Part shown: positions 5,418-64,000 of the stretch, one piece after another | How positions within the stretch are numbered: position 1 is the first letter of the stretch | Layout: every line of letters begins with the position of its first letter | Virus record (IMG/VR): IMGVR_UViG_3300042878_000903 | Span: 45,969-109,968 of that record | Strand: one strand, 5' to 3' | DNA: 64,000 bases | Source of the DNA: a virus | Translations under genes and position numbers: made by a program | Notes under the pieces: generated by a model | Told to the model about the DNA's origin: nothing | The model's input: the letters and a program-made list of their open reading frames with translations, nothing else | Databases searched by the model: none

Positions 5418-5472
5418 TGTTTACCTTAATGTCAGTAGGCCATGAATATTCATGGCCTATAGTCTAAATCAA

Positions 5473-5500
5473 ATTGTAGCATAGTGCTACATATTGTCAA
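5473..5500 (-). promoter_or_regulatory. sigma70-type promoter for the replication operon
   Basis: TTGACA-16-TACAAT with extended TG, followed by a 24-bp perfect palindrome at 5436-5459. Confidence 0.6.
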
Positions 5501-5503
5501 TAC

Positions 5504-5929
5504 CTAAGTCGTGCTACAAGCAATCCAATTTACGTAAAGACTTCCGCTAGCACTGGCGCCTACATTCTGCATTTGTATTGAAAACCCTGTAGTGGATGCA
5601 GCAGTCACTATTGGCTGAAACTTATTAACTAATATTGCACTAGCTGAAGGTTGCCAAATCGTACACACGATATTTGGCTGAGCATCAAAATCCCTTTTAA
5701 ATTTTACTGCGGTAACTGTCTTTCCGTCTTTATTGGCAGTAATTTTCAGTCTGCCAGACTCAATTTGTGTTTGAACACTCGACCCAGGAGGTGGTGTTGA
5801 GCTGCCACTATCGTTAATAGAATTTGATAAACTATTTATTATATTTATATTAGACACAATGTTGGACAATAACTCTGATGTTATTGGATCCCCTGGATTT
5901 ACAGGCATTGGTTGCAATTGTTCAGCCAT
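5504..5929 (-). CDS. minor tail protein, H-type lectin/gp53-like C-terminus
   Basis: IESG...VKFKRDFDAQPNIVCT...TGFSI...VNWIA pattern. Confidence 0.6.
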   Translation of the reverse strand: MAEQLQPMPVNPGDPITSELLSNIVSNINIINSLSNSINDSGSSTPPPGSSVQTQIESGRLKITANKDGKTVTAVKFKRDFDAQPNIVCTIWQPSASAILVNKFQPIVTAASTTGFSIQMQNVGASASGSLYVNWIACSTT

Positions 5930-5931
5930 TT

Positions 5932-6093
5932 TTACTCCTTTGGTTTTTCCTTTGGTGCCTCTAGTTCTTGAATTTTTAATGACAACTGAGTAATCTCGGC
6001 ACGAAGAACAGCAATACTTGTCTCATATTGTGAGACAATTTCTCCAATACGTTGCTGTAATGCTGTTACAATTAATTCTAATCTATTATCCAT
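5932..6093 (-). CDS. small coiled-coil protein
   Basis: Not in ORF track; MDNRLELIVTALQQRIGEIVSQYETSIAVLRAEITQL... Confidence 0.65.
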   Translation of the reverse strand: MDNRLELIVTALQQRIGEIVSQYETSIAVLRAEITQLSLKIQELEAPKEKPKE

Positions 6094-8621: not shown

Positions 8622-9508
8622 TATAAAAATCCTAAGTCTATCTTATATTCAATGTCCATTTCTATTCCAAGTGTTTTAACTAATGGGGTAGACAAGACTG
8701 ATCTACTAATTAAACCATATTGGCTATTATATCTGTCTTCATCATTTAATCTTAGCCCGTCTAATAAAACATTTGTAGCCCCTGAAACCTTAGCCTTAGC
8801 CCCTATTTCTATTATAGTAATTTGAGAAAAGTCTGTTGCTCCAGCGGATGAAAATGTAGAGTTAAATAGGCTAGATAACTTAAGTGATAAAATTTTATGT
8901 CCTATAGACGTTGTTGCTGCAAATCTTATTTCTTTATAATTGGTTGGTGAGCTATAAAATCTAACATAAATATAATCTAGGTTTAAATCTGTTTGATAAA
9001 AAGCAAGGGAAATTGAATCATCCACTCCGTATCCAGCAAGATCAAAAACGGTGTCTAGGCTGTATGATTTTGATTGATTGCTTGCTGCGGTAATAGAAAA
9101 ATATGAAGAGCCTATTCTGGGAGTTGGAGTTGAAACTGATATTGGCTGTTCACCATTTGAATCTTTCCAGCTTGTTGTGTTTTCAAAAGAAGATATGTAT
9201 TTAGATGAATAGTCTGTATTTTGCAAAAACCCAGTAGGGAAAATTCCAATTTCTGATATTATTCCTTCAACATCTGTTGGTAGGGTGGTCTTATAAACTA
9301 CGGAATATGTTGTTACTCCATTTGTTGTATTTGTTTGTATGTCAGAACTTCCAAGGAAAACTCCTGATCGATAAAATTCAAATTGCATGTCTGAGTCATT
9401 TACAGTTGGGGCTTGAGACCCTATTCCTACTGCAATGTCTTTTTGATTAAAATTAAGTCCGCTTGCCAAATAAGATGTTATAAACCTTTTACCAAATTTT
9501 GTTATCAT
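8621..9508 (-). CDS. minor tail/baseplate protein
   Basis: ITKFGKRFI...AVGIG...ISEIGIF pattern; tail-module position. Confidence 0.6.
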   Translation of the reverse strand: MITKFGKRFITSYLASGLNFNQKDIAVGIGSQAPTVNDSDMQFEFYRSGVFLGSSDIQTNTTNGVTTYSVVYKTTLPTDVEGIISEIGIFPTGFLQNTDYSSKYISSFENTTSWKDSNGEQPISVSTPTPRIGSSYFSITAASNQSKSYSLDTVFDLAGYGVDDSISLAFYQTDLNLDYIYVRFYSSPTNYKEIRFAATTSIGHKILSLKLSSLFNSTFSSAGATDFSQITIIEIGAKAKVSGATNVLLDGLRLNDEDRYNSQYGLISRSVLSTPLVKTLGIEMDIEYKIDLGFL

Positions 9509-9915
9509 ATTATCATTACTCCCTTTACAATCTCTCCAACACTATTTTTAACTTCAAAAGTAACTCTAAGCAGCCTATTATTATTCCCATCGTAATATAT
9601 TTCTGGATCGGTTATTGTTTGGCCAGAAGAATATCTTTTTCCAGTTGTTCCAATTAAAACTATGTCCTCTAAATTTGGGGCATCCGAAGTATCTATTGGT
9701 TCATCTGGTGCGGTATCATCATCGTCATCTTCAACGTCTCCATTATCACCTGGAGATGAAGCAACATATGTTTTATCTACTTTATTAGTGTATATATTTA
9801 CAATATCATATTGATCGCTTTTTAATACGTCAATTAGGGGTGAGTCTTGGGGTAGCTGGACTTTAACTCCACCAGCAATTTGCGACTTTCCTATTCTTGG
9901 TTTTTTTGTAGCCAT
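9505..9915 (-). CDS. hypothetical tail-module protein
   Basis: ORF with its own leaderless-type promoter. Confidence 0.55.
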   Translation of the reverse strand: MATKKPRIGKSQIAGGVKVQLPQDSPLIDVLKSDQYDIVNIYTNKVDKTYVASSPGDNGDVEDDDDDTAPDEPIDTSDAPNLEDIVLIGTTGKRYSSGQTITDPEIYYDGNNNRLLRVTFEVKNSVGEIVKGVMII

Positions 9916-9935
9916 ATTAAGATTCTACCATTTCA

Positions 9936-12900
9936 TTAAACATAAATCGACCTACAAGTAAGTTTTGTAGACGGGGCTTGGCTATAACCCTGCTCAATAT
10001 CCAAAACAATATATTTACCAGCCGTTTGCCCAGTATCTTCAGTTGAATAAATCATATTATTTGGATATGATATTTCAACTACATCTCCCGTTTCAATAAT
10101 AGGGTTTGGGAAAACGTCTATTTGAATAACTGTTTGTTGCTTAGACCATTGAGTTCTCATCCATTTAGAAAGCTCTTTAGCTTCAGATTCTTTTTGTATC
10201 CACATAGATTCAAATGCTACTTGCTCATCATTTTTAGTTGCAGATAAATCTGGATCAAGATACTCGAACGGGTCTAGGGGAGCTACTGTTTCTCCTACTA
10301 CGATAAAGCTTTTTTGACCACCGTCTGCTAAATCAACAAATGCTCCTGTGTTATTTAAAATATAAGCATCAATTCCAAATGAGTTTGCATCGTACCCAAG
10401 TAGAGTTACGTTGGGGTTTAATATTATTTGAGGGTATTTAACAAAACCTGGTCTTGTTGCATACCTGGTTGATATTTTTTTAATTTCTCTGGCTACTGGC
10501 CCAAATTCTTTTATCCATGGACTCGATAAAGTAGAGGCAGATCCAATAGCAATAAAGTCGCCAAACACATTTTTTAGTTCCGTGGCAGAACCAACGTATG
10601 AGCCGTAATTGTCATAAGAATAAGATCCAGTAAAATCTTCTTTCTTTAATGAAGCTATATATGCATAGTCAAATGCTGATTCACCTTGTATGCCAATTAA
10701 TGCAATTTTGTTGCCCATTGTTGTGGCTGCAGAATCAGTTGCTGTTATTACGGCATTGTTAAATTTAATTTTAAATATTCTTTGACCTGTTGTTGCTTGA
10801 GAAACTCTTACGTCTACTCTATAAAATTCTCCTCCAGATACTCCAGTAATTGATGCCTCTTCTGTCTTTTGAGTATCAGAAACTGGTGTCTCTACTCCGT
10901 TAACTATTTTAAATAGTTGTACATCTCTATAATTCAATCCTTTGTTTGCTACGTTTTGAGAAGTTCCAATTTTTAAAATATAGCCGTTTAAATTATTGGC
11001 GTCAAGACCAATGCCTAGTCCAGCAGAAACAAACTGTTCCCCAGTAACTCTTCCATTGCTACCTTTAGCAAGCTTAAAGAATAAAGCTGTTCCAATTGAA
11101 AAATATTTTTGTGATGTAAAATTAACATCTGGATTAATTGAAGCGCAATAGTATTCTTTAGATGCCGTGGGTGCAACTATTGTAAGCAAGGATCTAGATA
11201 TTAAAGAACCTGATCCATCTGTTTGTCTTAATGAAAATACTGATTGATCTTCAACATTTGTTTTTGCAGACAAGTTTAGTTTAGATCCTGTCCATTGATT
11301 TTTTAATTCGTCAATATTTACTGAGTGGCTATCGCCTACACCGATGCCTTTACCAGTTGCATTAAATGCATTTCTTTCTTTAATTCTATATCTTAGGGTA
11401 GGCTTAAAAGAATTTATCTTGCTTTCCCCAAGAAATTTAGCAATGTCTGAGTCTGACGTTATCCATTTCTTTATAACTGTATTTGGTGCAGATAGAGGTT
11501 CATATTGAAATTCAATTGCATCATATTCAATTATTTCATTGTTTATTAAAAAATACCCAGCTTTATTATAAAAAGATGTATCTGCTAAGTCGCTGTAAAT
11601 ACTAATTGGAGACAAGGATACAACTCCTTTGTCGGCATTTGTTTCGGCTGGTGCCGTTGCCAATAAAGTAGTTTGTAACGCAGCTGCACCAATTGCGGCT
11701 GGCGGAGAAACATAAAGGTTGTCTGATGAGCCCTGATAGTTTGTGCTAATAATCGGAGTGTAAATTACTTTTACTGCCTTAACAGAAGGAACTGTTTCTT
11801 TGGTTAAAGATATTATGTTAGGAATATTAACCCCCTTAGATTCACTTCTAAACTTAAATCCAGATGTCCTTGTTGGATCAAACAAATAATCTCTAGGATA
11901 AAACTGCAGAATATCATTATTATCAAATGTTGCTATCATCTGTGTGTCTCTACATAGATCTTGAATGTGTTGCCATACAGTTTTTGTGTCTTCTGTAAAC
12001 CAGTACAAAGGGACTATGGTGGCGGAGTCAACTTTATTTGCATCCCCCTTGCCATAAGTATTAAAGTTGTACCCAGTAAATCCTACGCTATCTAAAAGCC
12101 TTCTTATGATTGCTTGTGATGGAGCATTTTGAATTACAATATCTGGAGCTAGTATTTCTTGTAGAAATTTTGCTCCGTCTAATCCCTGTATGTCGATGTC
12201 TCCAAATTCAGACAAAGTGAATGAGTCTATGTAAAATACACCCTGTGGAATAACATCATCTCCTATTTTATTAAATGGAGAAACTTTTACATTCTTATAT
12301 AGGTTAATGTTGTCTTTGTTAAATGGCATTGTTTTATCATACTCAATACCCCTTTTATCGTAGCCCTCAAGCGACATAGATAAGGCATTTGAAGTTACAG
12401 ATCCAACTGGAACAATACCAGATGAGTCATCGGATGAGGTTTTTGAAACTTGAAAAGAAACTATTCTATTTGACACATCTTGTATATATCTGGCTCCGAC
12501 CTCTATTATTCCAAGATACGAGTTGGCAACACTGATTGTATTAACAGTGACAATAATCTTTTTAATATTTACTGGGGCCGACGGAGTTGTAAATTTTGTC
12601 GTTGACCATGAGGATCCATTCCAATATAATTGAAACACTCCATTGTCTGGAACAACTCCATTTGTAGATATTGTTGTTTCTGTACCAGCGTGATCTTGTA
12701 TTTTAATAGACCATGTAGATGGCTTAGAGTAAGAAGTTTCAAATTTAACAAGTATGGTATTAGTAACAGCAGTTTTTGATATTGGATAATCTACAGTAAA
12801 ACTAAAATTACTTAATGTTGTGCCGCCAGATTTAGGTGAAACCCAAAACTTGTATTGATTTTTAGGACTAGAAAAATAAGTTCTTACTGGAAGATCTGAA

Positions 12901-13232
12901 GAAACGTTATATTTTGGTATGCTATTTGTAACATTTGGGTTTAATATAAAATAATTAATTCCTGCTGCCGAAGGTCTTCTTGGGTCTATTATGCTGGTTA
13001 ATGGAAATAATTTTTTAAATGGCTGATATGTTTTACCAGTAATTGGGTCTGTTTGAGTTGCAGTTTCAGCTGGTGTAGCCGTAACAGATGCATTTAAAAT
13101 TAAATCGTTCATATTATATTCTAGCCAGCATCCGCCTGACATTGAATATGAAGCAGATGTATTTAGTTTATCTAGAGTTGTTTGGCTTACTGATTGCATT
13201 ATACTTCTTCCAGCGAAATACTTACATCCCAA
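9936..13232 (-). CDS. large minor tail (hub/baseplate) protein
   Basis: 1098 aa after the distal tail gene; C-terminal NPIIETGDVV...YIVLDIEQ hub-like motif; true start may be 13199. Confidence 0.7.
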   Translation of the reverse strand: MGCKYFAGRSIMQSVSQTTLDKLNTSASYSMSGGCWLEYNMNDLILNASVTATPAETATQTDPITGKTYQPFKKLFPLTSIIDPRRPSAAGINYFILNPNVTNSIPKYNVSSDLPVRTYFSSPKNQYKFWVSPKSGGTTLSNFSFTVDYPISKTAVTNTILVKFETSYSKPSTWSIKIQDHAGTETTISTNGVVPDNGVFQLYWNGSSWSTTKFTTPSAPVNIKKIIVTVNTISVANSYLGIIEVGARYIQDVSNRIVSFQVSKTSSDDSSGIVPVGSVTSNALSMSLEGYDKRGIEYDKTMPFNKDNINLYKNVKVSPFNKIGDDVIPQGVFYIDSFTLSEFGDIDIQGLDGAKFLQEILAPDIVIQNAPSQAIIRRLLDSVGFTGYNFNTYGKGDANKVDSATIVPLYWFTEDTKTVWQHIQDLCRDTQMIATFDNNDILQFYPRDYLFDPTRTSGFKFRSESKGVNIPNIISLTKETVPSVKAVKVIYTPIISTNYQGSSDNLYVSPPAAIGAAALQTTLLATAPAETNADKGVVSLSPISIYSDLADTSFYNKAGYFLINNEIIEYDAIEFQYEPLSAPNTVIKKWITSDSDIAKFLGESKINSFKPTLRYRIKERNAFNATGKGIGVGDSHSVNIDELKNQWTGSKLNLSAKTNVEDQSVFSLRQTDGSGSLISRSLLTIVAPTASKEYYCASINPDVNFTSQKYFSIGTALFFKLAKGSNGRVTGEQFVSAGLGIGLDANNLNGYILKIGTSQNVANKGLNYRDVQLFKIVNGVETPVSDTQKTEEASITGVSGGEFYRVDVRVSQATTGQRIFKIKFNNAVITATDSAATTMGNKIALIGIQGESAFDYAYIASLKKEDFTGSYSYDNYGSYVGSATELKNVFGDFIAIGSASTLSSPWIKEFGPVAREIKKISTRYATRPGFVKYPQIILNPNVTLLGYDANSFGIDAYILNNTGAFVDLADGGQKSFIVVGETVAPLDPFEYLDPDLSATKNDEQVAFESMWIQKESEAKELSKWMRTQWSKQQTVIQIDVFPNPIIETGDVVEISYPNNMIYSTEDTGQTAGKYIVLDIEQGYSQAPSTKLTCRSIYV

Positions 13233-13648
13233 AATGCCTGTGCTGCATCCGCCGTTTTTTCCTTTACATTTCTTTTGATCATATTAAATGAGCATGAAGT
13301 AAAGCTTGCGGCAAAATCTTCGGTTCTGGCTGAGTTATAGGCTATTCTTACATTAAATGTTCCTTGGCCCTTAGCACTTAAATAAAATGCTTTTATATCT
13401 TCTGCTCCCCAGCCTGCATCTACGGTCATGGTGGAATATGACGGAACCATGCTCCAGGAGGTGGATATGTTCTTCTTATCGGCTATAAACAGCTTTCTAA
13501 GGCTTCCATTGGCCATCCTAGAGGTCTGCTCAAAGCGTTGTACATCTACGGATATTGGGGACCTATTATGTTCAGTTAATTTTTGCCATACGCTATTAGC
13601 ATCTTGTATAAACAATGCTGAGCCGACTGGTAATACTAAAGCTGCCAT
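13199..13648 (-). CDS. distal tail protein
   Basis: Directly after tape measure; RMANGSLR...W motif and C-terminal SISLEEV. Confidence 0.65.
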   Translation of the reverse strand: MAALVLPVGSALFIQDANSVWQKLTEHNRSPISVDVQRFEQTSRMANGSLRKLFIADKKNISTSWSMVPSYSTMTVDAGWGAEDIKAFYLSAKGQGTFNVRIAYNSARTEDFAASFTSCSFNMIKRNVKEKTADAAQAFWDVSISLEEV

Positions 13649-16600
13649 TATATATTCTTCCCTTGTCCAACCATTTTAACATTAACTTTAGCCTTTTGTC
13701 CAATAACAACTTCTGCTTTTTTAATAATCATATTTGATAATGCCTCAACATCCATTCCATCAGATGCGTATATGTTTTGATTTACAACATATGATGCTCC
13801 AATTGCTCCATCGCCTTTTACATTATATGACCTCTTGTCAAAGCTATATCTTGGAGATGCGGCAGCCAATGTATTCATAACATCGTTTGGCATAATATTG
13901 GCACGATTTTTTAAGTGAACAAACTCTGGTCCCTTTTCTCCAACAAGATACATTCCGCTAGCGCCACCCTGTACGCCAGCAGCAGCTTTACCCATGAAAA
14001 CAATATTTCCATTTGTTTTGCTCTTGCCATACCTTTGACCATTCCAAATAAAGGTCTCACCTATTTGTAGGTCTTGGTTATTTGCAATTGATCTTCTAGC
14101 CTGTGCATTTAAAACCTTTGTCTTAACTCCATTAAATTCTTTTTCTTCCATTGCATTTGAATAATTTCCTGAAACAGCAATATCTTTTCTTAATGCTGGC
14201 TTGCCATTTACACCCTTTACCGCATCTACAACATCTTTAAGAGATGCTCCGCCTTTAATGCTATTTGCAAGTGCTTCATTTACAGCAGATCCCGCTCCCG
14301 ATTTTGCCAATATGCTTAGTGCATTTGCTTGTGGAGAAACTGGAATTTTATTAGTTACTACTTTTCCACCTTCATAATTTGAATACTCGGTGTATCTTGG
14401 CATTTTTTCGCCAGTAGCAGCTTCTACTGCAGCTACTAATCCTGCTGCTGCTTCTTTATTTGTTTTAACATAATCTTCTACAGATTTACCAGCAGCTTGT
14501 GCATTACCATAAAGCGCAGTCATGGAGTTATTAACTTTGTCTATTGCTGCAATTGCTTCAGCTTGTTTTTTGCGGTACGAATCTAGACTTTCTCCAGCAA
14601 GTGCTGCGCTATCTGCAAGGTCCTGTTGTTTATTTCCAAGAGCTTCGATGGCGGCCTTAAGAGGTGCATTTGCTGCTTCAGTTGCCTTATCAATAGCTTT
14701 TGATTGCGACTCTGTTTGTTGTTGACTTGTTAATGATTCTAAATCAAGTCTAAGCTCTTGAGACTTTTGAGTATCTCCAGTTGCTTCAGCATTTTGCATT
14801 GCAAGTCTAGTCTTTTCAATTTGTCTGCCAAGATCCGCATCTGCTTGTGCGGCAGATAATGCTTTCTTTCTAGCTTCTGCCAGTTTATTATTTGCTTCAA
14901 TTTGCTTGTTAAGTGAAGACAACTTATCTCTATCAGATATTTGCTGTGAAACTGTTTGTCCCTTTAGTGCTTTTGTATAAGACTTAATCTTATCTTCTAG
15001 CTTAGCAAGTGCACTATATTGTTTCGATAGAAGCCCGTCTTTGCTTGAATTTGTTGCCACTACAGATGTATTTATAGCTGCAAATGAATCGGCAATTAAT
15101 TTTGTTTGTGCAGCATTTAATTGAGAAAGATCTCCAGTAAATCCTTGCGCCTGCAGCCTAATCTTTTCCCACACACTTACAACCGTATCAGATCCATTAA
15201 TCATTTTCTTAACCTCTGGATTTGTTTTGGCCATTTCATCAACTGTTCCCTGAGTAATTACTGCCCCAGCTTCTTTTGATTTATTTATTTGATCAAGCAT
15301 TATTTTTTCAGCTTCTGCATAACTGAGAGACTTTGTTTTTCCAGTTAAATCTTTTGCTACTAGTCTTTCTCTCTTTGCGATTAAATCATTAATTCCAGTC
15401 TCGGTAGCCATAAGAGCTGTGTTTAATGATGCTGCTTTTTCTTTATTTCCTTGGTCTTTTGTATCAGCCCCAAAACTTGTAACTGCAGAAACTGCAGCAG
15501 TTTGAGGATCTGTAATTGCTTTAAATGCTGCATTGCCAAGTGTTGCAGTAATTGATTGGTCTTTCTTATTTGAAAGCTGAAGCATTGTATATACTTTCTT
15601 GGTTGCTTCTTCTGCAGACATCCCAGCAGCAATTAACTGCTCTTTAATTCTTCGAACTGCATCTGGAACCTTATTAGATGGCTGTCTATCTAGTGCCTTA
15701 ATCTGTTCACCAAATGTTTCTTTTACTTCAATCTTTAATTTTTTGTATTCTGCAATAGTCATTTGGAATGGAGTTCCGCCATCCTTCATGCTTTCGTAAA
15801 TTAATTTATTTGCATCAGCTAAATCTTTTGCGTCTTGTATAGTATCTTTAATTTTTAAACCAAAGTCTGTGAATCTAAGTCCAGCTTTTTTAGCTGCTTC
15901 TGCGGTTAAACCAAATGTAGCTATATTAAGAGTTTGTCCTTCTTTATAATTTTTCCATGCTTTGTAACCAGCAATTACTGCTACTGTTACCGCTGCTAAT
16001 GGTGCAACTAGTCCTGCTGCTGCTGCTGCAGTTGCGCCAAATCCTGCAGAAGCTAATCCTGCTGTTGCTGCGCTGGCCGCTGCACGTTTTGTGATCATTC
16101 CACCAATTTTTGGAAGAAGCATTTGGCCACCCATCATTCCAGCCATGCTACCCATCATTGCGCCATTTTGACCACCAAGTTTTCCACCTATTGCTCCACC
16201 TGCTGCCATTCCGCCCATCATACCAACCATGTTTGCGCCAGCACCTTGACCAAACTCTGGATTTAATCCTTTTGTCTTTAAGTATTGTATTGGGTGCATA
16301 ATTGCTGCTGTTGAGTATGCGGCATTAGTTTTAAATGAACTAGCCATTCTTGCAGCACGATCTTCTTTTCCACCTGGGAATGCTCCTGGTACTCCAGCAA
16401 CTAATATTTCAGAACCACCACGTTTGTAAGACGAACCAATGGATTTAGCTGCTGATGTTATAGAGTTTGCATATAATTTTGATCCGTCTACAAGTGATCT
16501 TATTGAATAAGATACCTGATCATTAATCATTCTTGTGCTTGTTATTAATTTATTTGAGCCTGCTTTAAGAGAAGAAGCTATTGATGAGAAAGCAGAGTCT

Positions 16601-19600
16601 ATAGATGAGCCTGCTCCTGATAAGGGAAGTTTTAATCCTGGTGCATAAGGGAAAGATCTTTGGCCCCCGTAAGATTTAGCTGCTTCAGCACGTGCTGCTT
16701 TTTCTGCAAGTTGTTCTGCACGTTTTGCTGGATTTCCACTAAGCCCATATGAGTCTTTATCATTCCTAATAACTCCGCCAATTTCATATCCTGGAATAAT
16801 TTTTCCACTTTGAAGTGGTCTAAATATTTCTGGTCCTTTTTCTCCAACAACATAATTTTGTCCTGGAGATACTGGCCCACCCATTTCTCTATTTCCTCTA
16901 ATATCAAATATTTTCTTTTTAAGCTCTTCTGTCATTGGGGTATTTTGTTTTGAATCCCAAGTTAAATATTTATTTTTTAATATGTCTTTATCTATTGGAG
17001 AAAGCTGTCTTATAATATTTCTGTCAGCAATTAAATCATTAGCAGCCTGTCTAATAATTGAATCTAGTACGTCTGGCTCAAGACCATGCTTTAAAGCACC
17101 AGTCTTTGGATCTTTAACATATCCGTACGGCTTTTCTTTTGCCATAGCCGCTGCAAACTTGTCATAGAATAATTTTTGTGTATTTTTTCTTAAGCCAGAA
17201 TTTGCAAATAATGTTTCTGCCATTCCTATTGAAAGTGAGTTAACTCCCCATGGCGCTGACTCATACATACTAGGCTTAGGAGCTCCAGTTGGTCCAAATC
17301 CTGCACCAATTCTTCTCATAGCTAAGCCCTTTAAAACATTGCCAATTATTCCTCCGTTATTAAACTTAGGCATCATGTGTGCCAGTGCGGTAGGTTCTCC
17401 ATTAATTTTTTCTATTCCATAATTACGATATGATCCCATGTACCGTGTACCATTGGCATCATTTGCTTCCATAAGTTTTGCTAAATCTGTTTTACCATAT
17501 GGGTTTAAAGCAGTCTCTGCTTGAATTCCCCTAGCAACTGGGTCAGTTGAATGTGCTCTTCTTTGTCCTGGTACATTTAAGCTTTCTAAATATTCTTTTC
17601 TTAAACGAAGTTCTTTGGCTATTGAAAGGTATTCTTTGTGTTGAAGCCTTGACCATTCTGCTTCTCCAATTTTTCCAGTACCAGATAAACCAGAAACTAT
17701 GTTTGTTCTAGCACGATCAGTTAATAGTGCTATTTTATCTGGAGGTACTTTGTTTACCTGTAAGAATCTGGTAAGTGAAGGTAAAGCCTGTTGAGATGAG
17801 CCATGCATTAAATCGCTTACAATGTCAGCTTTTTTAGCAGCACCATGAGAAAGAGCTGTATTAACACTTGCTCTTAATCTTCCGCCCCAATTTCCTACGA
17901 AATAATATTGCCTACTTAATTCTTTGGATGACGATCTAAGCGCAGTTCCAAAAACACTGTCTTGGTATGCTCTAGCTTCTGCACCAGACAAAGACATATC
18001 TCTGCCTCGAAGCATTTCTCTTGAAAGCTTTGGATTACGCTTAAATAATTGTGCTAAAATTTTGCCCATTACTGCTGGGTTTATTGCTCCATAATTAGAG
18101 GTTGAAAGACTAATCTTTCCGCCACCCATATTTCCTGGAAGTGGTCTTCCGTTATTTGCTGCATCTACTGCTGCAAATAGTTCTGGATTGTCTTGAATTC
18201 CTGGACCAAATACTGTTTCTTGCGGTGTAAGAAGAGCAGTAATATTACCACTAGATTTTTTATGTGTTGAAGGAGCGGCTGCAACAAGTGCTGCATTTTT
18301 TGGATCTAAAGATGCTTCTTGATTTAATACATATCCGCCCAATGGAACGCTACCCATTCTATCATCATACGAAATAGATGCAGGTCCGCTTACCCGAGTT
18401 TTATTTTGACCAAAGTCTTCAATTTTTCCGCCAGCATTAAATCTAGGTTTTGTTGTTTGAATACTATATCCTGCTCCAGAAGTTCTAACACCAAGACCAC
18501 GGGCAATAGAATCTACAAGCTTAGAAGTGTCTGACTTATGGAAAAGCTCTTTCATATTTGACTTGCCAGCTGCGCTTACTACTGGCTGAGATGTGAGCGG
18601 TACCATCCCTAAGTTTATGCTTCTTGCTTGAGCCGTAGCTACACCCTGTGCTGTTTGAGCTAGCATAACTTCTACTTGTCGATTTAATGCAAATATCTTG
18701 GCTCTAGCTGCCTCTACTGTAATTTTACCAGCCTGTAATTGTTTAACAATTAATGCTGTTTCGTCTGCTGCCAAAGAAGTTATCTTTGTCATTTGTGGAA
18801 GTAATGCTTGATATGAATCTGATAGTGATGCTGTTACTGTTCCAGTAGCAGCAATTTCAGTTTTAAGTAATGCTATTTCCGCCTTGGACTGCATTGCTAA
18901 TGCTGCAGTCATAGAATGCCACTTAGCTGCTTCTGCTGCAACTATTCCATTTGAAACTCCATTAACTGAAGTAACTCCAGGAATCCTTGGAAGGTCATCA
19001 CTCATGTATGTCTGTGGTGAATTTGAAAGTCTTAGGTTTACTGGCTTAGGCCCAGGAACAGTAGAGAATATTGTTTCGCCTGCCCTTTGTTCTGCAGTCT
19101 TTGATCCAGTTGGAATAACATGGGACATGTCTCTTGAATAAGATTTACCGACAAGTGGATTGTCTTTGTCTACAATTCTTCCTCCGCCTCGCATAACTGG
19201 ATTACCAGCTATTGTAGACATGCTGTTGCTAGTTGCAACGGTAGATGACATTGCGCTCTGTTTTAATTTTTCAAATGATGCTGCTAATGTTAAAACTGCA
19301 TCAGAAAATGTAGCTGCTGCCTTTGTGTCACTGTAGAATGATTGCTCTACATTTTTTGCAGCAGATGATGCTGCCATTAATTCTGGAGTTAATAACTTAA
19401 ATCCTGTCCCGCCCTTGCCAATGTTTTTAAGAGCAAGTATTCCTTTAATAATGTATCCAAAGAAGTTGGCAAGTACACCAGTTAACATAATAATAGGACC
19501 AGCAACTGCTGTAAGGCTTCCAATAAATCCTAATACTGCTTTAATTGGGCCAGGAAGGTTTCCAATAAACTTTACAATGCCGTCAATTGCATTTAATACA

Positions 19601-56955: not shown

Positions 56956-57226
56956 TTATTAATTATACCAGTATATATTTTAGTTGACTGCTATTTAAGA
57001 TTTATCAAAATGTTAATAAATTTTTAATTTGTATGATACACGTATTTCAGATGTCCGTTTTGTCTATATAGTCCGCACATATATAAATGACCTTGAGCGT
57101 GAGTGTGGTGTAACTCACAAAAATAGTTTGTGAATACTAGCGAGTAACCCCCCTAAATGTCAGACCCCCCTGCTAGGATTATAGTATAAAGAAAGTAAGA
57201 AAGTCTTACTAAGAAAGGTAGTTAAA

Positions 57227-57409
57227 ATGACTACACTAATCCGAGAGATTACTCTCTCTAATGTCCGAGCCGATGAGGCTAATCTAATTGTCTGCGCTTT
57301 CTGCTCAGACTACGCAAGCGAAATGTTTTGCGGTAAATGTAAAGAATACAAGGGCTTAATGACCCTTGGTGAGTGGTTATCTTACACTCAGGAAAGTTGG
57401 GTGATGTAA
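57227..57409 (+). CDS. early zinc-binding microprotein
   Basis: CAFC...FCGKCKEYKGLM; RBS and promoter upstream. Confidence 0.7.
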   Translation: MTTLIREITLSNVRADEANLIVCAFCSDYASEMFCGKCKEYKGLMTLGEWLSYTQESWVM

Positions 57410-57558
57410 TGTTATCCGAAAAAACTTTTAATAAAATTGTTTGGGAATACCAAAATGGTGGCGTGGTTTCTAATCACCCCGAATTAACTACCTATGAGCG
57501 TAAGGTATTGCTACGCTACTTAATCTCTCTCCCTACTGTGACTAAGGTCACAGAATAG
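57409..57558 (+). CDS. early microprotein
   Basis: TAATG coupling; MLSEKTFNKIVWEYQNGG. Confidence 0.6.
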   Translation: MLSEKTFNKIVWEYQNGGVVSNHPELTTYERKVLLRYLISLPTVTKVTE

Positions 57559-57639
57559 GCGACAGCGTGTCGCTTGATAATGTCGGTTGCTAATGATAGT
57601 CTTACCTTAATAAACAAACTAACGAAAGAAGGACAGAAA

Positions 57640-57732
57640 ATGGATAAACTAAACGAGGCACTAGAGGCCTTACAACAAGCAAACAAAGTGTTTGCTGAAA
57701 TGTTCGACATAGACGAGAGCGAGGCTAACTAA
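57640..57732 (+). CDS. early acidic microprotein
   Basis: MDKLNEALEALQQANKVFAEMFDIDESEAN; RBS GAAGGA. Confidence 0.6.
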   Translation: MDKLNEALEALQQANKVFAEMFDIDESEAN

Positions 57733-57845
57733 TGTTATTTTTTGATTGGGTAGAGGATTATCCTCACATTGTTTTGCCTATCGTGTTAGGCACGATAACT
57801 ATAATTGCTATTGTCGGTGCTATTGTTAATGGAGGTAATAACTAA
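57732..57845 (+). CDS. early membrane microprotein
   Basis: Single TM helix; TAATG coupling. Confidence 0.55.
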   Translation: MLFFDWVEDYPHIVLPIVLGTITIIAIVGAIVNGGNN

Positions 57846-58006
57846 TGAAACTAACCTACTCAATTTGGCAAGGCTCTTTACAGAAGGGCACACTAACCGC
57901 TAAGAGCATTAAAGAAATTATCGCTCTAGTTAATGAATTAAACGAGGCAAACCCTCCGTTAAAATTCGAATACCTAATACACAAGATAGAGCAGGTGAAT
58001 AACTAA
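57845..58006 (+). CDS. early microprotein
   Basis: MKLTYSIWQGS...; RBS GGAGG; TAATG coupling. Confidence 0.6.
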   Translation: MKLTYSIWQGSLQKGTLTAKSIKEIIALVNELNEANPPLKFEYLIHKIEQVNN

Positions 58007-58179
58007 TGATGACTAAATGGGATACTATCCAAGCGGATATAGCAGACGCTTATGTCTATCTAGATGAAGAAGAGGCGTTAGATAAGATTAACGCTGAGGC
58101 GATTAGCGATAGCGATATCGTTAGCCTTGATGAAATAATCGAGAAAGAATTAACATTAGATTGGGAGGCATACGAATAA
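58006..58179 (+). CDS. early acidic microprotein
   Basis: MMTKWDTIQADIADAYVYLDEEE... Confidence 0.6.
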   Translation: MMTKWDTIQADIADAYVYLDEEEALDKINAEAISDSDIVSLDEIIEKELTLDWEAYE

Positions 58180-58331
58180 TGAACTTAGAATTGTTATTAG
58201 ATAGCGAATACTTTTCTCTATACATTAACGGGCTATGGCCTAATGGTGTCGGTATAGATATCCCGACATGGCTACTAGTTGGCTCTATTGGTTTTATTTA
58301 TTCTATCGCATTACTTAGGAGAGATAAATAA
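58179..58331 (+). CDS. early membrane microprotein
   Basis: MNLELLLD...IPTWLLVGSIGFIYSIALLRRDK. Confidence 0.55.
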   Translation: MNLELLLDSEYFSLYINGLWPNGVGIDIPTWLLVGSIGFIYSIALLRRDK

Positions 58332-58430
58332 ATGGCTAACCCTAGCGGATTTTATACCTGCCCTAATTGTGGCAGGTTAAATGCGGGCGCATATACTAAA
58401 TGCGTATGTGAGCAAACTCACAAAGAATAG
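58332..58430 (+). CDS. early zinc-ribbon microprotein
   Basis: MANPSGFYTCPNCGRLNAGAYTKCVC. Confidence 0.55.
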   Translation: MANPSGFYTCPNCGRLNAGAYTKCVCEQTHKE

Positions 58431-58696
58431 ACGGCGTGTCGGCTTGACAAAATCGAGCCGATCCCCCACATAGCTACGGGGTCGGGCGTGTCGTTAAGGG
58501 GGTGATATAAATCACCCTGGATTTTGTGGATAACTTTCGGGCGTGTCGTGGCGTGTCGGGCGTGTCGTCCACAGCCCTAATGTGATTAAGAACACATGAC
58601 TTGAGCGTCTCAAAATGTGGAATTACTGGCTAGTAAGTAGAGAATTGTCGGTGGCTTCCGCTATAATTGCGGTATAACGAAAGGAAGTGGCTAACA

Positions 58697-58894
58697 ATGG
58701 CTAACTTATACACAATAGAAAACCTTTTACAAGGTAAGCAATATCGCTCTAATTCTCTTAATGGAGAAATTATTAGCGGTGAAAAAACCGACCATTGGTT
58801 TGGTAATGATAAAGAAGCGTATCGTGTTTTAATTCGCACACCGCATTCTTATAAAGACCACTATCGCATAATTGCGGTTAAGGTAGGTGAATAA
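58697..58894 (+). CDS. early small protein
   Basis: Start at MANLYTIE after GAAAGGAAG RBS. Confidence 0.65.
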   Translation: MANLYTIENLLQGKQYRSNSLNGEIISGEKTDHWFGNDKEAYRVLIRTPHSYKDHYRIIAVKVGE

Positions 58895-59017
58895 ATGGGA
58901 TATGTAGAAATCTTTAGAATAAATGATGAGGGTGCTGGCTGGGTAGATTTATCCGAAGCAACACCCGCAGAAATGTTAGATTTAGAAATCGGATTATTTC
59001 AGGAAGGTGCGCTCTAG
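58895..59017 (+). CDS. early acidic microprotein
   Basis: MGYVEIFRINDEGAGWVDLSEATPAEMLDLEIGLFQEGAL. Confidence 0.6.
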   Translation: MGYVEIFRINDEGAGWVDLSEATPAEMLDLEIGLFQEGAL

Positions 59018-59093
59018 GGCGTGTCTTTCCCGAAATTGTCGGTGGCTTAGGCTATAATTTAACCAATAACAAACTACGAAAGGAAAACTATAA

Positions 59094-59225
59094 ATGGGAA
59101 ATCTAGCAGAAATAATCGGGGTCGCTTGTGATGAGTGTGGCGGTGCTGGCTTCGTATTCTTTGGTGATGAAAAGAATTATGATGTTGAAAGTTGCGATTG
59201 CGTTAAAGAAACATGGGGTTTCTAA
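59094..59225 (+). CDS. early zinc-binding microprotein
   Basis: CDECGGAG...CDC; GAAAGGA RBS. Confidence 0.65.
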   Translation: MGNLAEIIGVACDECGGAGFVFFGDEKNYDVESCDCVKETWGF

Positions 59226-59425
59226 TGTATAGACTAGATACTTACTATGACGGACAATTAGAATACACACACAAATTCGCTGACGCTTTACAAGCGTTTG
59301 AGGCTTTCGCAAAATGTTATGATGTCGGATTTGCTAACGAATTCGCAACATATAATTTATCTTTGCCAACGGGCAAAATGTATACTAAAAACTTTAATCG
59401 GATTGGATTGGTGTCGCAGAAATGA
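59225..59425 (+). CDS. early small protein
   Basis: TAATG coupling; MYRLDTYYDG. Confidence 0.6.
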   Translation: MYRLDTYYDGQLEYTHKFADALQAFEAFAKCYDVGFANEFATYNLSLPTGKMYTKNFNRIGLVSQK

Positions 59426-59613
59426 TGACCCGTAAAGATTATATTGCTACTGCTGAAATTCTAAATTATGCTAGTAATAAAATTCACCCTGCTGTTTTTT
59501 CTAAAGTCGTAAATGATTTCGCAGAAATGTTTGCGAAAGATAATGAGCGATTTGATGTAACAAGATTTCACAAAGCGAGTGGGTATCGTGTTCCTAACTT
59601 CTCTTCAAAATAA
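59422..59613 (+). CDS. early small protein (MTRKDY...DN.RFD..RF type)
   Basis: Motif common in phage early regions. Confidence 0.65.
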   Translation: MMTRKDYIATAEILNYASNKIHPAVFSKVVNDFAEMFAKDNERFDVTRFHKASGYRVPNFSSK

Positions 59614-59719
59614 AGTAAAACGAATTCAGGAATTGCGCCGTAGTAATGCGGCGCAACCTGTTCGCAATAAAAAAAAATACACACGCAAAATAAAACATAA
59701 AAAATCTGATCTAATATAA
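59588..59719 (+). CDS. basic microprotein, ArfA-like C-terminus
   Basis: Not in ORF track; GTG start; IQELRRSNAAQPVRNKKKYTRKIKHKK. Confidence 0.5.
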   Translation: MFLTSLQNKVKRIQELRRSNAAQPVRNKKKYTRKIKHKKSDLI

Positions 59720-59889
59720 TATCGGGCGTGTCGCAGCTTGCAACGCAGTCGGGCGTGTCGCCCGCATAGGTGCGGGGTCGGGCGTGTCGTTAAGAGTGTG
59801 ATTAAAAACACCCTGAAAACTGGGGTGTTTTGTAATAAATGTCAGTCAGACCTGATATACTATCAATTCAACCAACGAAAGGTCAACTT

Positions 59890-60033
59890 ATGAATATATG
59901 CGAAGACTTCCCATGCTGCGGGCACGAAATGAATGATTGCGATGGATCTCTTTATGGATCCGATGAAGCTATTAAGCAAGATATGTGGCGCATGATGTCA
60001 CGCATGGCCGATGCAGAAATGGGGGATTTATAA
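59890..60033 (+). CDS. early microprotein with CEDFPCCGH motif
   Basis: Start after GAAAGG RBS. Confidence 0.6.
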   Translation: MNICEDFPCCGHEMNDCDGSLYGSDEAIKQDMWRMMSRMADAEMGDL

Positions 60034-60062
60034 TGTCAGACCTAACCGATATAATTGCCCCT

Positions 60063-60785
60063 ATGGTAAAATTAAAAAGATCTAATGATAGAAAGGTGGC
60101 TAACCTTGTCACAAAAAATGGAAAGCAAGCCGCAATTGCGAACACGTTCGGATTACCCGCAGGAAAAGATTTTTCATGTCCTGGTGCTACGTCTATCTGT
60201 GAGACTGTTTGCTACGCTGGGAAACTTGAAAAACTATACAAAGCAGTAAAGGCTAACTTATTACACAATTGGGAATTGTTACGCAATGCGGACAATGACA
60301 CAATGGTGGCCCTATTGGATGATATGATCATAGATTTTATTGCTGATTGTGATAAAAAAAATGCGCCTAAGTTATTCCGTATCCACTGGGACGGAGATTT
60401 TTTTAACGATACCTATACATATGCGTGGAAGACTGTTATTGAAAAGCATTCAGATATTCAATTTTGGGTGTATACACGTGTCAAGGACGCAGCGCTTATT
60501 CTAAAAGATATATCTAATCTATCACTGTACTATTCAACGGATGATGAGAATAAAGAAATTGCATTCGATTTGAAAACTAATTCTAAAATTCGGCTTGCCT
60601 ATCTAGGAAAAACATTTTCTGCTACCGAAGATACAATGAAAGAATTAACGGGTAAGCCTGGCGCTAAGTGCCCTGAAAATATGAAAAGTATTCCGCTTAT
60701 CTCAAGCGCAGGCAGTGCGTGTGTATCATGTGGCCTGTGTGTTTATGGTAAAGCAGATATAAGATTTTCTGCGAGTAAAAAATAA
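60063..60785 (+). CDS. Gp88-like protein (radical-SAM-like Cys pattern)
   Basis: FGLPAG...SCPGAT..C...CYA, FRIHWDGDF, FWVYTR, C-terminal CP...C..C..C; probable leaderless start 7 nt after TATAAT. Confidence 0.75.
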   Translation: MVKLKRSNDRKVANLVTKNGKQAAIANTFGLPAGKDFSCPGATSICETVCYAGKLEKLYKAVKANLLHNWELLRNADNDTMVALLDDMIIDFIADCDKKNAPKLFRIHWDGDFFNDTYTYAWKTVIEKHSDIQFWVYTRVKDAALILKDISNLSLYYSTDDENKEIAFDLKTNSKIRLAYLGKTFSATEDTMKELTGKPGAKCPENMKSIPLISSAGSACVSCGLCVYGKADIRFSASKK

Positions 60786-60880
60786 TGTATGAGGTGATTG
60801 GTGTTATTGGCGGATCAATGATGATTCTTATATCTATTCTGCCAATTTTATTAGCCGCATATGTAATAACCAAGCTGTAA
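60785..60880 (+). CDS. membrane microprotein
   Basis: MYEVIGVIGGSMMILISILPILLAAYVITKL. Confidence 0.45.
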   Translation: MYEVIGVIGGSMMILISILPILLAAYVITKL

Positions 60881-61068
60881 CGGCGTGTCGGCTTGACAAA
60901 TTAGCAAGCTCCCGCACATATCTGCGGGGTTATCCACAGGGTTATGAGGGTTATCCACAACCCCTGGAATTGTGAGTATTATCACAAAAGCTGAGACACG
61001 CCCATAATGGATTAGGTGATGTCGGTGGCTAATGGTAAAATACTCTTATCCAACAACGAAAGGCTAAA

Positions 61069-61275
61069 ATGAAAACAGTAGAACACTCTCTTAGATTTAT
61101 TACAGAGTTAGATGAGACCAACCCAACCGCACAACGATTACTAGAATTAGATAAAGATATGCAGGCACAATTATTGGAAGGCATGCTACACACTTTACTC
61201 GTTCCCGATATTATGCCACTTATAGATAATCTAAACGCAGGCAACTCTTATGCAACACTAAAGGTTGTGAAATAA
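61069..61275 (+). CDS. early small protein
   Basis: RBS GAAAGG; promoter at 61020. Confidence 0.65.
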   Translation: MKTVEHSLRFITELDETNPTAQRLLELDKDMQAQLLEGMLHTLLVPDIMPLIDNLNAGNSYATLKVVK

Positions 61276-61550
61276 TGTTAGCAACTGCTATCGGGATACT
61301 TGACGCAACCAAAGATAGTATTTTTGACGATGAAATTATGGGATTAGCAGGCGAACTCCATGAACGCAGAAATGAACTATCAGATGAAACTTTTGCTAAG
61401 TATTTATTTATGTATTCCACAGCCCTATCTAGCAAAGTAGCCGACCTAGTAACTAAGGTCTGCCTAAGCAAAGAGGAAATGTCGGTGCTATGCGCTACAA
61501 TAGACGAAATGGACAACCTATCAGAAACTATACTAGAAGAGGATAAATAA
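61275..61550 (+). CDS. early small protein
   Basis: TAATG coupling. Confidence 0.65.
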   Translation: MLATAIGILDATKDSIFDDEIMGLAGELHERRNELSDETFAKYLFMYSTALSSKVADLVTKVCLSKEEMSVLCATIDEMDNLSETILEEDK

Positions 61551-61820
61551 ATGGGAAGCATAACTGCATTAGGAATACAAGATAGTGTGTTAGATTTAGA
61601 AACACAATTAGCCTATCACTTACAAGGTAATCATTACCCGCCCGTTCCAATATCTATGGTGCAACCTTGCATAGATGCTATTGACGCATACTATGATGAG
61701 GATTTTGATCGACAGATAAAGATGCCTGAAGGCGTATCTTATAAAGGATTAGATACAGCCCCCGCTCACGCTATCATAGACCAACACCACTTAGAGTTTT
61801 GGCTACCTGAAAGTGATTAG
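61551..61820 (+). CDS. early small protein (HLQGNHYPPVP...HHL type)
   Basis: His-rich motif; RBS GAGGA. Confidence 0.7.
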   Translation: MGSITALGIQDSVLDLETQLAYHLQGNHYPPVPISMVQPCIDAIDAYYDEDFDRQIKMPEGVSYKGLDTAPAHAIIDQHHLEFWLPESD

Positions 61821-61913
61821 CATCACACACTAATATTCTCAAATACTGAGATAAGGCTAGACTAATGTCAGACCCCAATGCTACAATACAACCTAACAAA
61901 GAAAAGAGGCAAA

Positions 61914-62093
61914 ATGACAATAGAAGGAAAACTCTATCAGGTTGGCGATTTATTCACCACCCTAAAGTCAAAAAGAACAGGTGTTATCAAAGAGATACAC
62001 CCACAGGCATCTGGCTCGGTGCGTGTGCTACTAGAAATGCCAACGAAAGAAACTCGTTGGACTTCAGTATCCGCTAAAACGCTACTGGGCTAG
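61914..62093 (+). CDS. early small SH3-like protein
   Basis: YQVGDL......TGVIKEI...VRV.L...RW; start at MTIEG. Confidence 0.6.
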   Translation: MTIEGKLYQVGDLFTTLKSKRTGVIKEIHPQASGSVRVLLEMPTKETRWTSVSAKTLLG

Positions 62094-62171
62094 TAATTTA
62101 GGGCAGGAGGGTCGTCAGACCCTCCTGCTATAATACTCATAACAACAACCAACCAACGAAAGGAAACACAA

Positions 62172-62594
62172 ATGGCAAGAGGCAAAGCAATACAGGTAAA
62201 AATCGCTACTACTAAGGTTATCAAAGCCTTAGAAACAAGATTAGCCAAATTAGAGGCTGACTATAAAAAGCAAGATGAAAACGAAGCAAAGTTCCAAAAA
62301 TCTATTGAGAAATGGAAAAAGGAACTTTTCTCTTATGCTATCGCCAACATCTCAAAGGCAGAAAACCTACGCACCAATTATCGTGAGTGGACAAAAAATC
62401 TCAATGTAGATTTTGACCTAACAGTAAAAGATGGTGAGTTCCCTGCTGAGCCTCAAAGAGATTTTGAGCAACTACATGCTCATACTTATCGTGAAATGAA
62501 AGAGGAAATGGAAAATGCTATCCGTATTCTCAAAATGACCGATGAGGACACAGTAAGCACAAGCACTTACAACGCTATTGCTCGTTATCTCTAA
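62172..62594 (+). CDS. hypothetical coiled-coil protein
   Basis: GAAAGGA RBS; 140 aa. Confidence 0.7.
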   Translation: MARGKAIQVKIATTKVIKALETRLAKLEADYKKQDENEAKFQKSIEKWKKELFSYAIANISKAENLRTNYREWTKNLNVDFDLTVKDGEFPAEPQRDFEQLHAHTYREMKEEMENAIRILKMTDEDTVSTSTYNAIARYL

Positions 62595-62684
62595 TTAGAT
62601 AATCATAAGGGTGGGTGCGTGGGCGATAGACAACACCCACCCCTTATGGTATAATTTTTATCCCTACTAACAAAGGTAATACAA

Positions 62685-62918
62685 ATGCTAAACAGATTTA
62701 AGATAGAAATGTATGATGAAGTAAAGGCAAATGATTTAACGATTTATTCAGACGAAGGATACGATAACGAAAGTCTAAAAGAACTCGTGTTCTCAAATCT
62801 AAAACGATTTGATGGAAATGTTAAAGCTTTTGTATTTGATCAACAAAACAAAAAGAAAACTTCTGCAGCATTCTTTCCTATGGAAACAGTTAATTACGTA
62901 AAGTCTCTCTGTAAATAA
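62685..62918 (+). CDS. hypothetical protein
   Basis: TAGACA-17-TATAAT promoter (62627-62655) and RBS. Confidence 0.6.
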   Translation: MLNRFKIEMYDEVKANDLTIYSDEGYDNESLKELVFSNLKRFDGNVKAFVFDQQNKKKTSAAFFPMETVNYVKSLCK

Positions 62919-63129
62919 TCTTAGGGCGGGCTTATCTATTTCCCCGCCCTATTTCCCTTAATTTGCCCGCAGAGCTGCGGGGTTATCCACAGTTTTAAGT
63001 GAGGCTGTGGATATCCCTGGAATTCTGTGAGATTACTCACACCGCACAATTCGGACATATTATAACTAATCCTAGACAATGTCAGTGCCACCTGTTATAA
63101 TAAATCTAACAACAAACGAAAGGTAAAAA

Positions 63130-64000
63130 ATGGCTCATAATCTCGAAATCGAAAATGGCGAAGTTGCTTTCGCTCTTCGTGGCGCTCCTGCTTGGCACAA
63201 CCTTGCAAACCGCATCTTCACAAAAGATGAAGAAGTTACAACCGCTACAATGCTTGAAGAGGCAAAGTTAGCAAATTGGAATGTTCGCTTATCTCCAATT
63301 ACTGAATATATCCCAGAATCATTTAAAGATGTATCTGATGCTTCTTTAGTGTTACGCACAAATCCATTCAATGGTGGAACTGATGTTCTCGCAACTGTTG
63401 GCAAGCGTTACAAGCCTGTGCAAAATGAAGAGTTATTTCAATTTGCAGATGCAATTCACGATGCTAACGCCGATTGCCGTTGGGAATCTGCTGGCTCACT
63501 AAAAAAGGGTAAAGTAGTATTTGGAACTGTAGATATTCCACGCACAATGGTATTAGACCCACAAGGCGCTAATGACCAAACAAAACTATACTTAATTGTA
63601 TGGACTTCACACGATGGTTCTGTTGCCGTTCAAGCAGCCGTTACTCCTGTTCGTGTTGTATGCCAAAACACTCTTAATCTTGCGATGAAGAATGCTAAGC
63701 AATCATTCAAGATTCGTCACACACAATCTGTTGAAGGTCGCATTCAGGTTGCTCGTGAAACTCTTGGGCTTGCTCTAGGTTACTTTGATGAATTTGAAAT
63801 TGAGGCTAAGGCTTTATTTGCTCAGGCAATTACTGATGCTGAATTTTCTAAATTGATTCAAACAATTTATCCTAAGCCAGACAAAGATGCAGCAAAAGTT
63901 GCGCTAACTAAATGGGAGAATAAGGTTGTTCTGCTTGATGACCTTTATCATAACTCACCAACTAACGCTACAATCAAGGGAACAAAGTGGGGTGCGTTTA
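63130..64000 (+). CDS. DUF932 (LGT_TIGR03299-type) phage protein, truncated by window edge
   Basis: MAHNLE...PAWHNL, VG.RY.PVQN..LF, ESAGSL..G..V, SHDGS, TPVRVVCQNTL, KIRHT, GTKWGA. Confidence 0.85.
   Translation, partial: MAHNLEIENGEVAFALRGAPAWHNLANRIFTKDEEVTTATMLEEAKLANWNVRLSPITEYIPESFKDVSDASLVLRTNPFNGGTDVLATVGKRYKPVQNEELFQFADAIHDANADCRWESAGSLKKGKVVFGTVDIPRTMVLDPQGANDQTKLYLIVWTSHDGSVAVQAAVTPVRVVCQNTLNLAMKNAKQSFKIRHTQSVEGRIQVARETLGLALGYFDEFEIEAKALFAQAITDAEFSKLIQTIYPKPDKDAAKVALTKWENKVVLLDDLYHNSPTNATIKGTKWGAF

Follow-up and report, generated by a model that had tools for sequence, protein, structure and literature searches.

What reads the promoters of a block of small genes at the right end of an uncultured phage genome, when almost every one of them carries the same hexamer at the same distance from its −10 element? 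The block is found in the IMG/VR virus record IMGVR_UViG_3300042878_000903 (109,968 bp) and was analysed in the 64-kb window formed by bases 45969–109968, the right end of that record; positions given below are those of this window unless the record is named. The block extends on the + strand from ~57,160 to the record end and consists of small, individually promoted and presumably early genes, a timing assigned purely by analogy with similar blocks in related phages. The repeated element is TGTCRG-N10-TANNNT, here termed the box promoter, and it has the sequence and geometry of the actinobacterial RecA-NDp promoters that are activated by PafBC. Judged from these sequences, host PafBC probably docks on the box and helps the sigma-A RNA polymerase to start early transcription.

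There are 10 exact matches to TGTCRG-N10-TANNNT in the window, all on the + strand and all located between 57158 and 63101. In 100 shuffled windows the mean was 0.98 and the maximum 4 matches, with none reaching 10. A preliminary description of this DNA had listed 11 copies; the additional one, at 62113, is CGTCAG-N10-TATAAT and so departs from the box at one base. Outside the window, at base 521 of the record, there is a twelfth and exact copy on the + strand, and elsewhere in the 110-kb record the pattern has only two matches, both on the − strand and without promoter context. GTC is retained at all 12 sites, as TGTCRG at 11 and as CGTCAG at one, and half of the sites have TGTCRGTG, the full RecA-NDp core. 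The box is positioned at −28 to −23, the −10 element is near consensus (TAtAAT), a G is present at −14 in 12 of 12 sites and TGn in 8 of 12. The spacing is N10 at every box site in the window, as had been described earlier. The box promoters of the window are listed here with the genes that they precede, and with one conventional promoter that provides a contrast within the block.

57158–57179, + strand: box promoter 1, TGTCAG, −10 TAGGAT; leftmost in the block, upstream of a 60-aa gene (57227–57409)
57581–57602, + strand: box promoter 2, TGTCGG, −10 TAGTCT; upstream of a 30-aa gene (57640–57732)
58646–58667, + strand: box promoter 3, TGTCGGTG, −10 TATAAT; upstream of a 65-aa gene (58697–58894)
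59037–59058, + strand: box promoter 4, TGTCGGTG, −10 TATAAT; upstream of a 43-aa gene (59094–59225)
59840–59861, + strand: box promoter 5, TGTCAGTC, −10 TATACT; upstream of a 47-aa gene (59890–60033)
60034–60055, + strand: box promoter 6, TGTCAGAC, −10 TATAAT; adjoins the stop codon of the preceding gene
60063–60785, + strand: GP88-family gene (PF17338), the query used to fetch relatives
61020–61041, + strand: box promoter 7, TGTCGGTG, −10 TAAAAT; upstream of a 68-aa gene (61069–61275)
61480–61501, + strand: box promoter 8, TGTCGGTG, −10 TACAAT; within an open reading frame (ORF; 61275–61550), ahead of the gene at 61551–61820
61866–61887, + strand: box promoter 9, TGTCAGAC, −10 TACAAT; upstream of a 59-aa gene (61914–62093)
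62113–62134, + strand: box promoter 10, CGTCAG, −10 TATAAT; upstream of a 140-aa gene (62172–62594)
62627–62655, + strand: conventional box-less promoter, TAGACA-N17-TGG-TATAAT; upstream of a 77-aa gene (62685–62918)
63080–63101, + strand: box promoter 11, TGTCAGTG, −10 TATAAT; upstream of the DUF932 gene
63130–63999, + strand: DUF932 gene (PF06067), truncated by the record end

Nine of the listed box promoters are followed, 26–47 nt downstream, by an ATG with a Shine-Dalgarno sequence (a ribosome site of the aACGAAAGG type), and at the other two, 60034 and 61480, an ATG is positioned 7 nt past the −10, an arrangement of the leaderless type. With the unit at 62685–62918 as the exception, it is fair to say, as had been claimed, that there is nearly one copy per transcription unit. 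The ATG that follows promoter 6, at 60063, fits a leaderless GP88 mRNA, and this promoter overlaps a longer, coupled GP88 start at 60033, so that in addition to the one copy previously recognised as embedded in a coding sequence (61480), the copy at 60034 also overlaps the long form of GP88. The box of promoter 10 lies in the loop of an inverted repeat (62098–62133). Most sites do lack a −35 element: only TAGACA at 63073, 17 nt upstream of the −10 of promoter 11, has 5 of 6 consensus bases and three or four other sites have 4 of 6. The small ORFs of the early block gave no match in family searches.

The PafBC consensus established in M. smegmatis is tGTCgg(N10)tA(N3)T, with the box at −28 to −23 and without a −35 element, and the G's of the GTC are read by PafB residues R46 and R50 (PMC8635444). 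The phage sites have all the features by which this class is recognised in sequence, a GTC box, an exact N10 to TAnnnT and no conserved −35, and they share with recA P1-type promoters the fixed orientation and a box that is TGTCRG and often TGTCRGTG; the identification of the motif as RecA-NDp was correct. The two sites with an ATG 7 nt past the −10 also resemble many PafBC-type sites of the host-like genomes described below. The phage sites differ, however, in what they drive, which is not repair genes but ORFans, GP88 and DUF932, and in their density, 12–18 sites per 7–12 kb as against 4–11 strict-pattern sites per whole 1.4-Mb host-like genome. They also differ in having a near-perfect TATAAT, often with TGn, an A favoured at box position 5, leaders mostly of 20–40 nt with a strong aACGAAAGG ribosome site, and palindromes resembling CRP sites upstream. 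No phage promoters with a PafBC box, and no phage use of PafBC promoters, are described in the literature searched.

The box promoters are conserved across a large phage family. Using GP88, at least 596 related IMG/VR stretches were obtained, and the family counts reported here are from the best 80 loci of these (1.09 Mb). On the gene strand the motif has 1075 occurrences and on the opposite strand 10; a reversed control pattern has 11 and 8, respectively. The logo of 719 unique sites, aAA-TGTCAG-T-(G/C)-(C/G)-n3-C-T-G-c-TAtAAT, has only 0.02–0.5 bits at the −35 position, with a weak TAGACA-like hexamer in a minority of sites. When spacings from 4 to 20 were scanned, 662 strict sites were found at N10 and no more than 9 at any other spacing. 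In a gene-anchored test that is independent of the motif, a box promoter was sought within 120 nt upstream of orthologues, and was present before all 65 orthologues of DUF932 (promoter 11), all 27 of the 140-aa gene (promoter 10) and all 30 of the 68-aa gene (promoter 7). The least conserved site is 61480, retained before 10 of 63 orthologues. The preliminary description had suggested a scan of actinophage genomes for the same enrichment; it is evident in the 80 related loci but not in the eight cultured actinophages, the three Streptomyces relatives NootNoot, BillNye and StarPlatinum and the mycobacteriophages L5, D29, TM4, Bxz1 and Giles. A scan of IMG/VR with the strict pattern returned multi-site contigs mostly from this phage family. 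Two contigs, IMGVR_UViG_3300042888_001912 (L266) and IMGVR_UViG_3300046804_001094 (L254), have 11 and 8 box promoters, beside glycosyltransferase and collagen-like genes, and in the part fetched they have little or no similarity to this phage; promoters of this class may thus be present in more distant phages as well.

Other words recur around the box promoters. Palindromes resembling CRP sites (TGTGA-N6-TCACA, up to 2 mismatches) are located upstream of seven of them, at 57104, 57537, 58581, 59797, 60971, 61812 and 63026, with centres at about −63.5 or −64.5, at −74.5 (three times) and at −85.5, approximately one helical turn apart, and with one out of phase at −69.5. There are 10 copies of GGCGTGTCG (58433–58568, 59725–59790 and 60882), partly in tandem 9–10 nt apart, and four of a perfect DnaA-box word, TTATCCACA (58525, 60930, 60951 and 62983), both in intergenic cassettes that adjoin CCCGCA..TGCGGG hairpins. 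In the 80 relatives both words are conserved and biased in strand, with 476 forward and 111 reverse copies of GGCGTGTCG and 218 and 71 of TTATCCACA. A tTcGGACA word (63050–63057) is conserved ~40 nt upstream of the DUF932 −10 in the phage family, and a similar word, CCGGACA, follows terminator hairpins in the early block of the Streptomyces phage NootNoot; the two may be a shared, older control element.

Since the orientation of the box is fixed and its spacing single, the factor that reads it is expected to contact the polymerase. As the block opens, at its left end, with a box promoter, that factor would have to be present before infection. Host PafBC is suggested as the reader because the box is that of the host phylum, because the first promoter of the block already has it and because no candidate reader was found in the phage. 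PafBC is activated by single-stranded DNA bound to its WYL domains (PMC11804915), and we propose that a host PafB/PafC heterodimer so loaded would grip the box through the helix-turn-helix (HTH) of PafB and bridge to region 4 of the housekeeping sigma factor ('sigma adaptation'). The single-stranded DNA could be generated by processing of the entering linear genome, as replication intermediates or by host damage. Host polymerase would thereby be recruited to, or stabilised on, 12–18 phage promoters at once, with transcription elsewhere in the genome starting at box-less extended −10 promoters.

The phage itself is of a lytic type, uncultured, ~110 kb and abundant in metagenomes. Its sequence places it as an actinophage related to the Stanwilliamsviridae, since it encodes the actinophage markers WhiB, GP88 and DUF932 and a portal with 56–59% identity to those of Streptomyces Stanwilliamsviridae; for WhiB the identity is 45–50%. 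The large genes of the record are almost all on the − strand and encode portal, protease, capsid and tail proteins, a class II ribonucleotide reductase, DnaE, RecA, KatG and other auxiliary proteins. The whole record lacks a tyrosine-integrase domain. The record stops within the DUF932 gene, the frame of this gene is not sensibly extended at the record start (record 1–230) as a circular continuation would require, and relatives have five or six further box promoters 4–8 kb past GP88, from which the record probably lacks a few kilobases despite a completeness estimate of 100%. From 5,000 to 17,000 the record has a run of host-like auxiliary genes, encoding the catalase-peroxidase KatG, a glutathione peroxidase, a Cys/Met pyridoxal-phosphate (PLP) enzyme, a radical SAM/SPASM enzyme, several 2OG-Fe(II) oxygenases and a sulfotransferase. 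Cultured Nanopelagicales reportedly need help with peroxide or haem, which makes a phage KatG of interest.

A mycobacteriophage with M. smegmatis, the species named for reporter tests in the preliminary description, as host is ruled out by the GC content of 36.7%, by nucleotide matches that are weak only and to Streptomyces phages, and by relatives that are uncultured IMG/VR contigs. Other elements of the earlier proposal, the motif, its spacing and an actinophage origin, were borne out; that the first genes depend on this response, and that incoming phage DNA triggers it, is inference alone. PafBC-type WYL pairs are almost universal in the Actinomycetia sampled, with WYL proteins present in 299 of 301 genomes of this class, to which Streptomyces belongs. 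Eight genomes flagged as unpublished (G011, G019, G028, G034, G036, G040, G047 and G267) are counted in this total and are used for no other claim. A plausible but unproven host group consists of complete Actinomycetia genomes of 1.3–1.5 Mb, with ~45% GC, or 44–51% in the stretches fetched, that would fit the description of freshwater Nanopelagicales. These small genomes encode a tandem WYL pair of 327 and 307 aa that matches M. smegmatis PafB/PafC of 7P5X (E = 4e-39 and 9e-22) and conserves both DNA-reading arginines (the R..R motif). The recA gene of these genomes has TGTCAGTG-N8-TACCTT and an SOS box side by side upstream, and in one of them (G284) the recA promoter matches the phage DUF932 promoter (63080) at 19 of 22 bases. 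In 14 small genomes TGTCRGTS-N8-TANNNT has 99 matches, versus 21 for the control, with 4–11 strict sites per genome, fewer than the phage holds in 7 kb. The phage Cys/Met PLP enzyme is 51–57% identical to those of the small genomes and at most 48% identical to those of the other genomes searched, and parts of katG are 68–73% identical to the small genomes at the nucleotide level.

PafBC-type promoters of the small genomes, mostly leaderless, cluster in a ~50-kb island (G144:C1:439001-492000, stretches L176–L178; G185:C1:912001-963000, L182–L184; G284:C1:430000-441000, L198). It encodes an SNF2 helicase, an Rce1/CPBP protease, DUF4236-TPR and TPR proteins, a trypsin-like peptidase, a C5 DNA methylase and many unknown proteins, and looks like a defence-type island wired to a single-stranded-DNA alarm. 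BrxR and CapW, regulators with a WYL domain that govern phage-defence islands, act mostly by repressing host defence genes (PMC9122601, PMC9122588). As there, a WYL sensor of single-stranded DNA would couple infection or damage to transcription, and the PafBC-type promoters of host-like genomes are in a defence-like island; BrxR and CapW, however, control host defence genes, whereas here the regulated genes would be those of the phage. Phage genes controlled by LexA and the SOS response, as in prophage induction, similarly tie phage expression to a host DNA-damage signal, but SOS control acts by loss of a repressor and an activator route is proposed here. The whole record has no match to the actinobacterial SOS box TCGAAC-N4-GTTCGA with up to 2 mismatches allowed.

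Several observations weigh against PafBC as the reader, or at least against an absolute need for it. The phage −10 elements are near consensus, two thirds of them with TGn, and some box promoters, such as that of DUF932, also retain a −35-like TAGACA. There is, moreover, a second class of promoters, on the − strand, with TGnTAYAAT, an AT-rich upstream region and no box, in 16 copies that serve structural, replication and auxiliary genes (for example at 40929, 37829, 36398 and 33397); several have an ATG 6–7 nt past the −10, the leaderless type. As the remainder of the genome relies on these box-less promoters, an extended −10 element probably needs no help in the host of this phage. With such −10 elements in both classes, the box may modulate rather than enable, PafBC boosting or timing promoters that do not require it, and we regard boosting or timing as just as likely as absolute dependence. 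The link to the small genomes is also weak, because phage KatG, at 63–64% identity to their proteins, is barely above those of Bacteroidota (61–62%) and none of the 14 small genomes has a nucleotide match to the early block; with identities of up to 62% across many phyla, KatG is uninformative for host assignment. The closest cultured relatives, finally, use ordinary −35/−10 promoters for the equivalent genes. The early blocks of Stanwilliamsviridae, such as NootNoot genes 1–21, likewise have many small genes, each with its own promoter after a hairpin, and include GP88 and DUF932-type genes, but the NootNoot promoters are TTGCxx-N17-TAGACT and the box is absent from the three Stanwilliamsviridae genomes scanned. 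The box is therefore an innovation specific to this clade, and its reader need not be PafBC.

These observations lead to the most durable of the alternatives, which we nevertheless consider unlikely: that the extended −10 promoters are self-sufficient and the box is an operator or modulator, for a repressor, another host factor or PafBC without activation, that sets timing or shut-off. The near-consensus −10, the G at −14 that is invariant at these sites, the frequent TGn and the use of box-less TGnTAYAAT promoters by the rest of the genome all agree with this, as do the few sites at which the box falls in the spacer of a −35-like/−10 pair and the conserved words resembling protein sites nearby (GGCGTGTCG, the DnaA box and the CRP-like sites). 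But the box is asymmetric, fixed in orientation and at one exact distance from the −10 in ~700 unique sites, which argues for a factor that touches the polymerase rather than for a loosely placed operator, and it is identical to the one known activator box of such geometry in the host phylum.

Less probable again is a phage-encoded factor, an unrecognisable small ORFan product or a protein delivered with the virion, that reads the box and replaces the −35 contact in the manner of MotA/AsiA. The architecture is that of T4 middle promoters, in which a MotA box at −30 combines with a sigma-70 −10, the box near the −10 replaces the −35 and the host housekeeping holoenzyme reads a temporal class. 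The block is rich in ORFans without a family match, its one unit with a conventional promoter could fire first, and the cultured relatives do not have the box. T4, however, makes its own activator and co-activator, which remodel region 4 of sigma ('sigma appropriation'), whereas here the box is the host's own and no phage candidate is apparent. Searches of the record, to which MotA and AsiA profiles did not belong, turned up no WYL or PafB/C-like protein, no sigma protein or sigma domain (r2), no recognisable HTH protein and no family match for the early ORFs. The phage-encoded WYL mimic offered as an alternative in the preliminary description found no support: neither Pfam WYL nor tblastn and phmmer searches based on the PafB and PafC of host-like genomes detected a WYL protein or a PafB/C homologue in the record. 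A box already at the first promoter of the block also argues against a phage factor, and an independent factor would have no reason to copy, base for base, the PafBC box of the host phylum, which candidate hosts use at recA. That the repeats are functionless, as chance matches or remnants of the recent duplication of one intergenic cassette, is scarcely credible and already contradicted by the comparative data: some neighbouring intergenic regions do have longer repeats in common, but no shuffled window reached the observed count, the flanks and spacers of the 719 unique sites are divergent while box, spacing and −10 are fixed, and conservation before the three sets of orthologous genes is complete in diverged relatives.

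If host PafBC is indeed the reader, the consequences for these phages and their hosts would be considerable. To our knowledge, sigma adaptation by PafBC has so far been described only as a bacterial DNA-damage response, and its use by this phage family would provide a host-factor counterpart of the sigma appropriation of T4. The set of box promoters would constitute a compact, testable, natural collection of PafBC promoters with near-consensus −10 elements, and the signature could be used to assign uncultured phages to actinobacterial hosts that have PafBC. One study reportedly ties PafBC to mycobacteriophage resistance, and loss or alteration of PafBC would be predicted as a route to resistance. 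In the most extended form of the proposal, which we advance only tentatively and think rather doubtful, the family has exchanged the −35 of its early promoters for the host PafBC box, its own DNA fires both the alarm and the takeover genes, and the boxes also titrate PafBC. With 12–18 boxes per genome copy, above the strict count of an entire host-like genome, a replicating phage would soak up PafBC and so deprive both the repair genes that PafBC drives in the host and the defence-like island. On this reading, no earlier virus is known to have commandeered a WYL-domain sensor of single-stranded DNA through sigma adaptation. Should the phage family use PafBC for its first genes, a host alarm that probably also drives defence-like genes would have become the start signal of the phage.

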